From: Dictyostelium discoideum
Lineage: Eukaryota
Direction: 5' to 3'
DNA length: 64,000 nucleotides
Assembly (NCBI GenBank): GCA_000004695.1
Contig: CM000153.2
Coordinates: 3,776,001-3,840,000, forward strand
Within the stretch, counting starts at the first letter, position 1. Each line of letters begins with the position of its first letter. Under the pieces are notes generated by a model that made no database searches, was not told where the DNA came from, and was given only the letters and a program-made list of their open reading frames with translations. Shown piece after piece: positions 5,232 to 17,854 of the stretch. The translations under genes were made by a program, and so were the position numbers.

Positions 5232-8200
5232 TTAATTATTGTTTTTATTTTTTTTATTATTATTAAAATTATTATTATTATTATTATTATTATTATTATT
5301 ATTATTATTATTATTATTATTATTATTATTATTATTATTATTATTATTATTATTAAAATTATTATTAAAATTATTGCTAAACATATTGGCAAAATAATCA
5401 TTATAATACATGAAATTTTCTGCCAAATTGTTATCAATTTCGCTACTGGTATTGGTTTTATAAAAATTACCACTTTTTTGATTATTTGGCTGATTGTTAT
5501 CGTAATAATTATTATGATTAAAATCATTGTTGTAGTTATAATTACCATCATAATCATTATCGTTGTCACAGTTGTAATTTTCGTTTTCATAAGTATCATT
5601 ATTATAATTAATGTTGTTAAAATTATTATTGTTATTATTATTATTATTATTATTATTATTATTATTATTATTATTATTATTATTATTATTATTATAATTA
5701 TTATAATTATTATTATTATTATTATTATAATTATTATTATTATTATTATTATTATTATTATAATTATTGTTATTATTATTATGATTAAAATTATTATTGA
5801 AGCTATTGCTGTTATAATTATTATTATCAATATAATTATTGCTATCATTATAATTATTGTTATCATTATAATTATTGCTGTTATCATTATAATAATTGCT
5901 ATTATCGTTATAATAGTTGCTATCATTATAATTATTGCTGTTATCATTATAATTATTGCTGTTATCATTATAATTATTGCTGTTATCATTATAATTATTG
6001 CTGTTATCATTATAATTATTGCTATTATCGTTATAATAGTTGCTATCATTATAATAATTGCTATTATCATTATAATTATTGCTGTTATCATTATAAATAT
6101 TGCTATCATCATTATAATTATTGCCACAGTCATTATCATTATCATTATCATTATCATTATCATTATCATTATCATTATCATTATCATTATCATTATAATT
6201 GTTATTGTTGTAATTATTACTAATGTTGTTGGTATTGCAATTATTAATATTATTATTATTATTATTATTATTATTATTATTATTATTATTATTATTATTA
6301 TTATTATTATTATTATTATTATTATTATTATTATTATTATTATTAATGCTCATATCCAAGTTACTATTGGTGTTATCATTACTATTTATATTACGTATTG
6401 TATTATTATTAATATTAATATTACTATTAATATTACTATTGCTATTAATATTACTATTACTATTACTATTACTATTACTATTACTATTACTATTACTATT
6501 ACTATTACTATTGCTATTGCTATTACTATCACCAAAGTTGTTAATGTTTGTATTGTCATTTATAGAGGTATAATTATTATTATTATTTTTAAAATTCATA
6601 GTGTTACTGTACTTGGCTATATCATTATATTTTTCAAACAATAATTCTAAACCTGTTATTAATTGAGTGAATGTTGGTCTATTTGAGCTATTTGGATCCC
6701 AACAACTATTAATAATTGAAGATATTTGCTCATCATGAAATATTGGATCTTTTAATGGTAGTCTTAAACCCTTTAAAATGTTTATTGGCTGCTCTAAAAA
6801 TCTTTTATCACTGAATGGCATTCTTTCAGACATAACTTCATAGAAAATCATTCCAAATGAGTAAACATCTGTAGATTTAGTATACTTTCCATTGGATAAC
6901 ATTTCAGTACTCATATAAGCAGGTGTTCCAACATTTGGTGTAAAGGAATTATGTCTTTCAGTAGATTCTATTTTTTTTTTAAAAAAAAAAACAATTAATA
7001 AATATTAAATAATTAAAATAATAATAGGATAGGGTTAATTTACCTTTACCAGTACCAAAATCAGAGATTTTAGCACAAACTAAATTTTCAATATTATAAG
7101 AAGCCATTAATATATTTTCTGGTTTTAAATCACGATGAATAATATCATTTTCATGTAAATATTCTCCACCTTTTGCTATATCAATTAAATATCTGGGAAA
7201 AAAAAAAAAAAAAAAAAAAAAAAAATTTAATATAAATATGAATAAAGAAAATAATATTATTTATAAAAAATTTAATAAAATTAAATTATTTACCTTATCT
7301 TTTGAGGAATTGTTATTTTAATATCTTTTCTATGAATTAAATCATTTAATGTACCTAATGGATAAAATTCAGTAACAATACCAAAGTTTTGATTAAAGAA
7401 TAAACAACCAGTTAGCTTTACAATATTTGGATGTTCTAATTTATCCATTAAACTAACTTCCCTTTGAATTTCAAAATGATTAAAAGTACCAAGTCTAAAT
7501 AATTTAACGGCTATTGATTGTTCTCTCCATAATCCAGAATAAACTACACCAAATGTACCTTCAGCTATATATGATTTAAGTATAATTTCATCGAAATCTA
7601 GATTTGGTGATGATTCACCCTCTATATGGATATAAAGAAAAGTTGACCATTTACAACTTCCATCAAATGATTCTATACATACTCCAATCTTTTCTAAATA
7701 CTATAATTTAAAATTTAATAAAATTAATAAAATTTAATAAATCATAATTATTATTATTATTATTATTATTATTATTATTATTATTATTATTATTATTATT
7801 ATTATTATTATTTTTACTTACTTTTGTTGAACAAATTAAAGTAATATCAATTTCACCAATTTCAGTTTTACCAGGATAAATTTCAAAAAAGGTACGATTT
7901 ACATTGACATTTGCTTTATGACCAGATATTGGGAATTGGAAGAAAACTGATAATGGAGTATTTGTTTGATTAAAAAAAGTAAAAGTGTCAGAATACCTTT
8001 GATTAAGTCGACACTTTTCACCATCAAGTCCAAAGGTAAATTTTGTTTGATTGAATTTTAATGGTAGATTTGGATCATTGTTTCTATAGAACATAGTGTC
8101 TTTCATTAGAGATATAACTTTTGGTTCAGTTTTATAGATTCCACTTCTACCATTCCTTACACTATTGTTTCTTTTAGATTTTAAATAAATTTTTAATGCT

Positions 8201-16600: not shown

Positions 16601-17854
16601 CGTTGTTTGAAAATTCAATGTATAATGAGTTTCTGTATCTTTGGTTGCTACCCTTAATAATATCAGTGACAATGTTTTTATTATTGGGTGAGAATATTAA
16701 TTTGTGATCATTATATTCTTCATTTAATGTTCTACCATCACCATTTATAAAAAAATTTTCAATATGCACTTTAGTATCTCCTGTAATGAAAATTGATGCT
16801 CCAATCGATTCATCAATTTTCTTTACAGAATATCTGTTGGAGATTCCAGTATTCATTTCGTCGATAGTAAATTTTATAAACGCTACTTTCATTACTTTTT
16901 CATTGCCTATTGGTGGGCAACCGCTAATGTTTACTATGGTTCTAGTAGAATCCATAATAATACTGCACAGTGAACCAAGAGGATTTGAATCTGAGAAGAT
17001 TTTAATTTGATAAAGTTTATTAATATTATCTCCAGGAATACTTGAGAATGGTGGAGAAATCCGTAAAGTTGTTTTTGATAAAACCTGGGCTGAATAAATC
17101 AGTGGGTAATTACCAATAAGTGTTAAAGAACCACCCAATGCAAGAATACCTGGAAAGTAACCCATTGGATCAAGTGGAAATTTTGCGGGATTAATGATGT
17201 TTAAACTATTATATTCTTCAAGAGAGAAGAACAAAAGTCCTCTTTTAATTGTCACCGATCCACCTGGTAAAATAACTAATGAGTGGACCATAAAACTATA
17301 AATACTTTCTGGTATATATAATGAGCCCTCCACAAAAGTGTAAAAATAAAAAAATTTTCAAACATATCTGATTGCGGAAATACGCTAAGGGTCAAATTGG
17401 AACCTATAAATAAATAATAAATGTTAAAAATAGTTTTAAAAAATATAGATTTATAAATTTATTACAATACCTTTTGTAATTAAAAATTTATTTAATGTAA
17501 GATTAGCGTCTAGGAAAGTATAAAAAGTCATTAGATCACCTTCAGCGTTTGGCAATGCGCCAGCGCATATATCTGGATAATATAAATCTGCATCTGTTTG
17601 TGAAATATTATTTGATTCAATATTTGAATGTGGAAATCTTTTTATACGTTTTAAACCATAATAACCTGGTGGTGTTGTAATAGTTTCTTCTTTTAAAAAT
17701 TTAAATATAAGTGTTTGATTTTTTTATTTTATTTTATTTATTTTATTTATTTATTTTTAAATTGCAATACTTTACCATCTGCATTTGAATATAAAATAAA
17801 TATGGATAGAAATATTAATAGTATAATAGTCTTTTTAAAAAAGTTATTTTTCAT
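13563..17854 (-). CDS. Receptor-like kinase paralogue 2, probably a pseudogene or decoy. Exons 17854..17776 (signal peptide MKNNFFKKTIILLIFLSIFILYSNAD), 17689..17471, 17403..14106 (ectodomain, TM helix, proline-rich segment; -1 frameshift near 17345), 14041..13955, 13896..13798, 13730..13563. The kinase homology stops after the VVIK (VAIK-lysine) region with a degenerate glycine loop (NNVSSV).
   Basis: Exon-by-exon collinearity with paralogue 1: ...ITKG|GSN..., ...LNCTTK|GTAAGC, FFEKIVVQFNTIESSESMHSFLYIQVE versus [27 protein letters not shown], then FDLNDLEYHSLLAKNNVSSVYKGLYKKTTVVIK...GYVIK*. The track ORF 14076..17333 starts at a GTG created by the frameshift. The TAG at 14076 lies inside a 66-nt GTAGGT...AG intron. 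Confidence 0.45.

Follow-up and report, generated by a model that had tools for sequence, protein, structure and literature searches.

Frameshifts and a Shared Deletion in the gdt3/DDB_G0285893/gdt5 Cluster of Dictyostelium discoideum AX4, with a Candidate G8/Beta-Helix Assignment for the GDT Ectodomain

Introduction

For the GDT receptors of Dictyostelium, Goldberg et al. 2006 cite earlier work by Zeng et al. 2000 and by Chibalina et al. 2004. The present article deals with three neighboring genes, gdt3, DDB_G0285893, and gdt5, within a 64-kb stretch of chromosome 4 of Dictyostelium discoideum AX4 (assembly GCA_000004695.1, contig CM000153.2, positions 3,776,001 to 3,840,000), i.e., reference-strain sequence, which was analyzed as a whole and is called the window in what follows. 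All three genes have been damaged in the AX4 lineage, by one shared deletion and by frameshifts, a reading to which we assign a probability of about 0.88.

The GDT family consists of six receptor kinases of the TKL group, namely Gdt1, Gdt2, Gdt4, Gdt6, Gdt8, and Gdt9, whose members have a signal peptide, a conserved extracellular domain called gdt_ex, one transmembrane (TM) helix, and a C-terminal kinase (PMC1420674); the Gdt1 kinase is listed with “multiple insults” and Gdt6 as inactive (PMC1420674, Table S2). The same kinome catalogue includes Gdt3, as Gdt3_ps, among 15 Dictyostelium kinase pseudogenes, i.e., duplicated copies that keep their introns at the parental positions and whose frameshifts are hidden in automated gene models by invented introns or shortened open reading frames (ORFs). 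Gdt3 was called a pseudogene after the candidates had been screened against project reads, expressed sequence tags (ESTs), and reverse transcription PCR (RT-PCR) (Goldberg et al. 2006, PMC1420674). A further system that bears on the extracellular part of these receptors is that of CEMIP/KIAA1199 and the cell-surface hyaluronidase TMEM2 (PDB 8C6I; PF10162, PF24606), in which a G8 domain is followed by a right-handed beta-helix.

The locus was compared with its counterparts in ACTFIW (locus L001; GCA_054859355.1, deposited as D. discoideum), ACTFIY (L004; D. cf. discoideum), and D. citrinum (L003), and with ACTFIT (L002; GCA_054883475.1), a second assembly of AX4-type sequence. A search of the literature for gdt5, gdt3, and the DDB identifiers returned nothing relevant, and no mention was found in the accessible literature of the deletion common to two of the genes, of the frameshift in gdt5 exon 3, or of an assignment to the G8/CEMIP type.

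Identity of the Three Genes

A sequence-only reading of the window had proposed three receptor-kinase paralogues with common ectodomain exons, and the start and stop codons it gave were confirmed (ATG/stop at 11680/5232 and 17854/13563 on the minus strand, and at 12417/13603 on the plus strand). The genes themselves are identified by their products. The conceptual protein of the first is letter for letter Gdt3_ps (DDB0219954p, “pseudogene”; PMC1420674, Table S2), an entry that carries an X at both sites where the frame breaks in the window. The second is gdt5, DDB_G0285895; its long minus-strand ORF (14079-17357) matches “Growth-differentiation transition protein 5” of D. discoideum AX4 (UniProt Q54MK0) at 99% identity. 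The third is the uncharacterized gene DDB_G0285893, whose 366 amino acids (aa) are matched at 100% identity over their full length by our 2-exon model, which agrees with the earlier description of a signal peptide followed by an ectodomain fragment. The cluster is real, but it belongs to the already known GDT family, and the extracellular part that had seemed to match no nameable domain is the gdt_ex domain of that family (PMC1420674).

The ectodomains of gdt3 and gdt5 are 42-54% identical, and a tblastn search with gdt4 matched the two genes at E 1e-143 and 3e-151, a relatedness that, judged from the alignments, is far beyond chance. Common to both are introns after the signal peptide and after TKG, an exon 3 that starts with GSN, the ILPGGS and LGGSxxLxG blocks, the CYAPCYN motif, one TM helix (recognized by eye in both as a hydrophobic stretch followed by a Lys/Arg cluster), and a TKL kinase that in gdt5 is reduced to a stub. 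The shared ectodomain exons that had been described, i.e., the signal-peptide, YYPDIC, and GSN exons with their sequence blocks, therefore stand for these two genes; DDB_G0285893 has none of the landmarks. With their signal peptide, gdt_ex, TM helix, and kinase or stub, the two genes have the makeup of the GDT family, whose intact members are type I receptor kinases with an ectodomain of ~900 residues and a long cytoplasmic linker between the TM helix and the TKL kinase. Unlike the members of that family, neither AX4 copy encodes a complete receptor kinase, and gdt5, having lost its kinase, does not appear in the kinome catalogue. The 64-kb window contains no additional copy of a gdt or DDB_G0285893-like gene.

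Frameshifts in gdt3

The gdt3 copy had been taken to have the full architecture from ectodomain to kinase. Its three kinase exons do match PF07714/PF00069 (E 1e-9 to 1e-16), but they lie downstream of two frameshifts in exon 3, at ~10983-10993 and 10506-10512. When the ancestral splice sites are used, the first stop comes after 190 codons, and an in-frame TAA stands at 10977-10979, at the first frameshift. These two frameshifting indels would be what disabled the gene. Three further apparent stops in AX4 gdt3 were rejected as alignment and intron artefacts. The introns follow the signal peptide, TKG, C(S/T)TK, QKIR, and DFGxxK, the positions found in the gdt5 orthologue, as expected of a non-processed pseudogene and as in the other duplicated kinase pseudogenes of Dictyostelium.

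As a side observation, the Asn-rich and (ND)n/(NS)n coding repeats of gdt3 are very long (window 5232-6500 and 8415-8640), comprising a repeat tail of ~440 residues after the kinase and a juxtamembrane poly-Asn tract of ~50 residues. Between AX4 and ACTFIW their lengths differ by indels of 12-39 nt, all multiples of 3.

A Deletion Shared by gdt5 and DDB_G0285893

ACTFIW, ACTFIY, and D. citrinum have a common gene order, i.e., an SPX/EXS gene, the gdt5 orthologue, a convergent gene, and the gdt3 orthologue on the strand of gdt5. In all three, the gdt5 orthologue encodes 1561-1574 aa with a full kinase and the convergent gene 1034-1042 aa, and single open frames run through gdt5 exon 3 (1119-1129 codons), gdt3 exon 3 (1142-1221 codons), and the middle gene (1022-1037 codons). 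In AX4, neither gdt3 nor gdt5 has an uninterrupted reading frame, and the polarity of the lesions is thereby established, with exons open in the relatives and broken in AX4. The convergent orientation is likewise ancestral, and therefore the inversion between copies that had been suggested is not needed.

By blastn, positions 13590-26000 of the window correspond to L001 14268-1774 and positions 11919-13584 to L001 18862-17233, and AX4 lacks the 2964 bp that lie in between in ACTFIW. The alignment shows no clear microhomology at the junction. The junction is the same in L002, the region is undeleted in L001, L003, and L004, and no displaced copy of the deleted DNA occurs elsewhere in the window. 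The lost DNA carried the remainder of gdt5 exon 6 with exons 7 and 8 (kinase subdomains III-XI), 26 bp of spacer, and two thirds of the convergent gene, on its 3′ side. Because the gdt5 kinase tail and the 3′ end of its neighbor were both in the lost DNA, a single event accounts for both truncated genes: a deletion of ~2.96 kb over the abutting 3′ ends of the convergent pair removed gdt5 subdomains III-XI together with ~675 C-terminal residues of the neighbor, and past the junction each cut frame now continues in the antisense of its partner. In agreement with such an event, gdt5, on the minus strand, and DDB_G0285893, on the plus strand, have 41 nt in common at their coding ends (13563-13603), and both C-termini are derived from the junction (FYQLGYVIK and DKNYL, respectively), the last five codons of DDB_G0285893 and its stop lying beyond it.

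The gdt5 stub reads FDLNDLEYHSLLAKNNVSSVYKGLYKKTTVVIKSTNPGDNIPFRDN and then FYQLGYVIK, with the stop at 13563. Its kinase ends ~18 residues past the lysine of VVIK, and glycine is absent from what should be the glycine loop, AKNNVSSVY, both as first described; the stub of ~46 residues gave no match in a Pfam scan. In the ACTFIW orthologue, exon 6 runs on into a full kinase. The intact orthologue has eight exons against six in gdt3, so that the exon-by-exon collinearity first proposed for the two genes does not strictly hold; the gdt5 exon 3 is, in addition, frameshifted. A complete TKL kinase is thus encoded by none of the three AX4 genes, since the kinase exons of gdt3 lie beyond its frameshifts, gdt5 keeps a stub, and DDB_G0285893 has no kinase.

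The gdt5 Frameshift and the Annotated Intron

In addition to the deletion, gdt5 is frameshifted at the start of exon 3, within the G8 module described below: when read from the ancestral exon-3 acceptor (17404/17403), it reaches a stop after 141 codons. The gene models bypass this region, in AX4 by an acceptor AG at 17309-17310 and in ACTFIT by another acceptor, upstream of 17327. The skipped stretch has 33% G+C, against 9% in the true intron, and an annotated intron that hides the frameshift in this way is implausible. It recalls the invented introns of the catalogued kinase pseudogenes, although gdt5 and DDB_G0285893, unlike those 15, are annotated as ordinary genes.

If the annotated acceptor were used, AX4 gdt5 might be a functional, kinase-less membrane decoy or co-receptor, comparable to the catalytically dead Gdt1. 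With the acceptor at 17309-17310 its ORF is indeed open over 1284 codons, amino acid change is not accelerated on the AX4 branch, dN/dS is 0.54 (below 1; see the section on rates), and the GDT family tolerates inactive kinases, namely Gdt1 and Gdt6 (PMC1420674, Table S2). We nevertheless regard this explanation as unlikely. The alternative intron takes in 95 nt of former coding sequence at 33% G+C, and Dictyostelium introns have <15% (PMC1420674); 32 residues are lost with it, and among them is the C-V-E-G motif, which is nearly invariant in the G8 module; the stub ends in junction-derived residues; and no lesion is present in the three related lineages. A decoy role, which the sequence-only reading had also raised, found no support.

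Another explanation would make the frameshifts and the missing 3 kb assembly or sequencing errors of the reference, the genome being 78% AT and homopolymer-rich and the gdt5 frameshift adjoining a T-run. Between L002 and the window there are just 18 differences, each of them in a non-coding homopolymer run, and every lesion is unchanged in L002; the lesions are therefore not reference errors. Since, moreover, GCA_054883475.1 has the same bases at every lesion even though homopolymer lengths differ elsewhere, slippage in homopolymers does not account for indels of 20, 7, and 4 nt, and the Gdt3 pseudogene call rested on project reads, ESTs, and RT-PCR (Goldberg et al., PMC1420674), error is a scarcely credible source of the damage.

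The Middle Gene

DDB_G0285893 had been read as an ectodomain-only gdt derivative. A YYPDIC exon, a TKG|G junction, and a GSN exon are all absent from it, as are a TM helix and a kinase, and BLASTP relates it to gdt proteins only at E 0.003 and 0.58, with 23-25% identity over ~120 residues. Its AX4 product aligns at 74% identity with the N-terminal ~360 residues of a 1034-aa ACTFIW orthologue, the length of which is the same in our derived 2-exon model and in the annotated product. This orthologue carries a signal peptide, and the C-terminal part of the full-length orthologues, rich in Ser/Thr and with a hydrophobic tail, by inspection resembles the signal for a glycosylphosphatidylinositol (GPI) anchor. 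The full-length product of the middle gene is thus a secreted, probably GPI-anchored protein of ~1035 residues. No kinase was found in the 1034-aa orthologue, and BLASTP along its length gave a best E of 0.49 to gdt.

At the level of profiles, hhalign aligns the DDB_G0285893 family to the gdt family with a probability of 85% (E 6.4e-6, 351 columns, 21% identity), over residues 108-498 of the former and 96-499 of the latter, and therefore the AX4 protein ends inside the homologous region. By these comparisons, the gene is what remains of another gene, of ~1035 aa and without a kinase from the outset, and not a gdt copy; its family is only remotely related to the gdt ectodomain, through an N-terminal module homologous at the superfamily level. 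Situated between gdt3 and gdt5, it belongs to a separate G8/beta-helix family. The homology searches that had been proposed as a check thus bear out the kinship of gdt3 and gdt5 (42-54% identity) and give for DDB_G0285893 only this remote profile match, with none from Pfam.

These results bear on the model from which the analysis started, in which a birth-and-death family is caught at three successive stages, i.e., complete, kinase-truncated, and ectodomain-only decoy, with an inversion between copies. Parts of it hold: gdt3 and gdt5 are true paralogues among TKL receptor kinases, gene death does occur in their family, gdt5 is without most of its kinase, and DDB_G0285893 does lie on the opposite strand with a remotely homologous N-terminal module. 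The graded series of domain losses does not hold. The “complete” copy is frameshifted twice, the orthologues of DDB_G0285893 are 1034-1042 aa long without a TM helix and kinase (BLASTP to gdt best E 0.49), the orientation of the genes is ancestral and common to four genomes, and a single deletion accounts for both truncations, so that the three-stage model is very improbable.

A second copy of the DDB_G0285893 family occurs in ACTFIW on a 2.9-Mb contig as two adjacent fragmentary genes, P0021 and P0023 (ACTFIW_009658 and ACTFIW_009657; 209 and 309 aa), and this family may also be decaying.

Rates of Change and Gene Trees

Compared with ACTFIW, the flanking genes have a synonymous divergence (dS) of 0.04-0.11 and a ratio of nonsynonymous to synonymous divergence (dN/dS) of 0.08-0.42. 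The corresponding values are 0.13 and 0.54 for gdt5 exon 3, 0.20 and 0.29 for gdt3 exon 3, and 0.44 and 0.32 for DDB_G0285893. An AX4-specific acceleration of gdt5 was considered and rejected, as the derived amino acid changes, with D. citrinum as outgroup, number 61 in AX4 and 51 in ACTFIW. For gdt3 they number 32 in AX4 versus 24 in ACTFIY, which is not significant, and for the stump of the middle gene 17 versus 6 (p 0.035).

Some observations weigh against the view that all three genes are dead. In both gdt3 and gdt5 every canonical splice site is retained and the frame stays open over long distances (948 and 1093 codons, respectively), and with the alternative acceptor a kinase-less gdt5 product is possible. 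In gdt5 there is no excess of derived changes in AX4, and its dN/dS is 0.54, not 1. Finally, L002 comes from the same strain lineage, and thus confirms the sequence and not the population frequency of the lesions. Given the rates, loss of function in gdt5 would follow from the lesions and not from decay, and either the lesions are recent or gdt5 is still somewhat constrained. We infer that none of the three AX4 copies is functional any longer and that all are relics that arose recently.

The gene trees of the three cluster genes are discordant. For the middle gene (window 12417-13603 compared with L001 15198-18375, L003 15227-18446, and L004 15187-18386), amino acid identity is 88% between AX4 and ACTFIY and 87% between ACTFIW and D. 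citrinum, and only 75% between AX4 and ACTFIW. The high dS of DDB_G0285893 (0.44) is explained by this tree, which groups AX4 with ACTFIY and ACTFIW with D. citrinum. Old haplotypes, introgression, or gene conversion could be the source of the discordance.

The Ectodomain and Its Fold

The profile of gdt_ex, when searched against 1.84 billion representative proteins, found only 20 clusters. The dictyostelid matches include D. purpureum, Tieghemostelium, Acytostelium, and Synstelium, and the three that were scanned all have kinase domains. The matches P0033-P0038 have E values of 1.7e-13 to 3.8e-4 (whole library), and P0033, P0034, P0035, P0037, P0038, and P0041 carry Pfam G8 at 21-77 bits together with CEMIP_beta-hel; P0036 has a kinase and no G8 match. 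Overall, most of the weak matches outside the dictyostelids, a diatom protein among them, have G8 at or above threshold and CEMIP_beta-hel. These G8 proteins, which bridge the two groups, in turn match the TMEM2 hyaluronidase structure 8C6I (E 3.2e-5). The DDB_G0285893 family aligns by hhalign to the same G8 proteins with a probability of 96.7% (E 3.2e-10), a result that is independent because this family was not used to select them.

The fold assignment is that of a G8 domain followed by a CEMIP-type beta-helix, and it upholds the earlier guess of a beta-helix. On these profiles, ILPGGS and LGGSxTLxG would be the glycine motifs of a divergent G8 domain, so that the GDT ectodomain would have the G8 domain first, then a right-handed beta-helix of the CEMIP/TMEM2 type, and a CBM-like jelly roll near the membrane. 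The jelly roll comes from Foldseek, where the model of the gdt5 ectodomain matched folds of the CBM35/CBM6/Eph-LBD type; its position next to the membrane is a suggested one, as Foldseek does not report the matched query residues. The model also superposes on solved right-handed parallel beta-helix proteins, and its resemblance to the pectin-lyase-like beta-helices (polygalacturonase 1BHE, AlgG, NosD, and phage tailspike depolymerases) is at fold level only, with 7-13% identity.

Several points stand against the assignment. Pfam finds G8 in no gdt protein: a scan of all ORF pieces and intact relatives returned the kinase and no ectodomain family, and G8 (PF10162; gathering threshold 22.9 bits) had no match at E<=1 in gdt5, gdt3, gdt4, P0002, P0007, or the 1034-aa orthologue, the nearest being 15.7 bits (E 0.014), below threshold, in P0022, a relative of the middle gene. 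The AlphaFold model of the gdt5 ectodomain (17 sequences), which is all-beta, is of moderate quality only, with a mean predicted local distance difference test (pLDDT) of 62, although most of the N-terminal 300 residues reach 70-89; that of DDB_G0285893 (4 sequences; mean pLDDT 40) is unusable. A PDB sequence search with the gdt_ex profile gave nothing at E<=10. Moreover, the hhalign comparison of gdt_ex with the G8 proteins (98% probability, E 1.8e-13) is partly circular, as these were found via the gdt profile.

With respect to CEMIP and TMEM2, the module order, G8 and then right-handed beta-helix, is the same and the glycine motifs match. The proteins of the window differ in that they fall below the Pfam G8 threshold, no GG domains are detected in them, and a TM helix and a TKL kinase are joined to the module, a combination seen in no non-dictyostelid match. 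Judging from the fold, the ectodomain of intact GDT proteins may have a glycan or another polymer as its ligand. One candidate is polyphosphate, the response to which is reduced in mutants of gdt2, gdt1/gdt2, and gdt4 (PMC8262924). A wider picture, which we put forward tentatively and at somewhat less than even odds, would see in gdt_ex, regarded until now as peculiar to Dictyostelium, a divergent G8 domain and CEMIP/TMEM2-type beta-helix with a CBM-like jelly roll, the first such modules wired to a protein kinase and serving to sense glycans or polyanionic polymers; AX4 would recently have lost three neighboring surface-protein genes kept in its closest relatives, and the discordant trees would hint at old haplotypes.

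Significance

As a discovery the cluster carries little weight, since papers and databases already contain the family, the pseudogene, and the names of both genes. Its interest lies elsewhere. Regarding annotation, gdt5 and DDB_G0285893 look in AX4 like truncated relics, and the gene models hide the gdt5 frameshift. For studies of GDT signaling in AX4, it matters that gdt3 and gdt5 are intact only in related isolates. As to the mechanism of gene loss, one small deletion that disables two convergent genes and makes two overlapping chimeric ORF ends is a clean example. Finally, the G8/CEMIP-type beta-helix offers a first testable idea, namely a polymer or glycan, of what these receptors may bind.

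Features of the Locus and Neighboring Genes

The coordinates of the features are collected in Table 1.

Table 1. Features of the gdt3/DDB_G0285893/gdt5 cluster, in positions of the window
Feature	Position	Strand	Remarks
gdt3_ps exon 1	11623-11680	-	signal peptide, phase-1 donor; identical to Gdt3_ps protein (PMC1420674, Table S2)
gdt3_ps exon 2	11332-11562	-	YYPDIC ... AVTKG|; from sequence and PMC1420674, Table S2
gdt3_ps exon 3	7822-11260	-	ectodomain, TM helix, cytoplasmic part to CSTK; broken into three reading frames
gdt3_ps G8-like module	~11010-11198	-	in exon 3, followed by beta-helix
gdt3_ps CYAPCYN	10183-10203	-	in exon 3
gdt3_ps TM helix	8818-8889	-	in exon 3; judged by eye
gdt3_ps frameshift 1	10983-10993	-	alignment with ACTFIW: 20-nt deletion and a further 6 nt (net -26)
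gdt3_ps frameshift 2	10506-10512	-	7-nt insertion GGAATAC relative to ACTFIW; then stop at 10496-10498
gdt3_ps exon 4	7294-7700	-	kinase subdomains I-V, kinase motif at 7503-7514; Pfam PK_Tyr_Ser-Thr E 8.7e-16
gdt3_ps exon 5	7044-7192	-	HRDLKPEN 7114-7137, DFG 7054-7062; Pfam Pkinase E 4.7e-12
gdt3_ps exon 6	5232-6967	-	kinase subdomains VIII-XI, Asn-rich tail, stop; Pfam Pkinase E 1.1e-15
DDB_G0285893 exon 1	12417-12465	+	signal peptide; model 100% identical, full coverage, to P0020
DDB_G0285893 exon 2	12552-13603	+	first ~350 residues of G8/beta-helix protein; G8-like module ~12806-13120
Deletion junction	13584-13590		L001 sequence between 14268 and 17233 absent; 5-nt filler TATCA 13585-13589
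gdt5 exon 1	17776-17854	-	signal peptide
gdt5 exon 2	17471-17689	-	YYPDIC ... LITKG|
gdt5 ancestral exon 3	14106-17403	-	ectodomain, TM helix, Pro-rich cytoplasmic region; 99% identical to Q54MK0
gdt5 frameshift region	17330-17403	-	five small indels relative to ACTFIW, net -4, at exon 3 start
gdt5 G8-like module	~17109-17333	-	in exon 3, followed by beta-helix
gdt5 CYAPCYN	16221-16241	-	in exon 3
gdt5 jelly-roll-like domain	~14946-15176	-	membrane-proximal; suggested placement
gdt5 TM helix	14793-14867	-	in exon 3; judged by eye
gdt5 exon 4	13955-14041	-	VFADHYHF...LNCTTK
gdt5 exon 5	13798-13896	-	FFEKIVVQ...ESELSTR
gdt5 exon 6 remnant	13563-13730	-	kinase N-lobe stub, VVIK 13632-13643, then nine junction-derived codons and stop

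In front of the GDT kinase there may be a cytoplasmic Ig/ASH-like domain (gdt5 13798-14400, gdt3 ~7822-8100); PF22544, an Ig domain of the HYDIN/VesB/CFA65-like kind, gives sub-threshold matches at the same position in dictyostelid relatives (P0030, E 4e-4; P0007, E 0.13). In ACTFIZ, another D. cf. discoideum, three gdt-family genes, P0011, P0012, and P0013 (ACTFIZ_008343, 008341, and 008345), lie within five gene numbers on one contig and one of them (948 aa) is without a kinase, and therefore clustering and kinase loss recur in the GDT family. In ACTFIY, a gene for a 435-aa DDE_1 transposase (L004 18714-20052) is situated between the middle gene and the gdt3 orthologue and is absent there in AX4.

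The G+C content across the window is 16-35%, Asn-rich coding repeats are abundant, and no tRNA genes were found in it. Upstream of gdt5 lies an SPX/EXS-domain gene (window 18131-21200, corresponding to L004 6501-9536) of a family linked to phosphate transport or sensing. Its product is 98% identical in amino acids to that of ACTFIW, with a dN/dS of 0.08, in sharp contrast with the three genes of the cluster.

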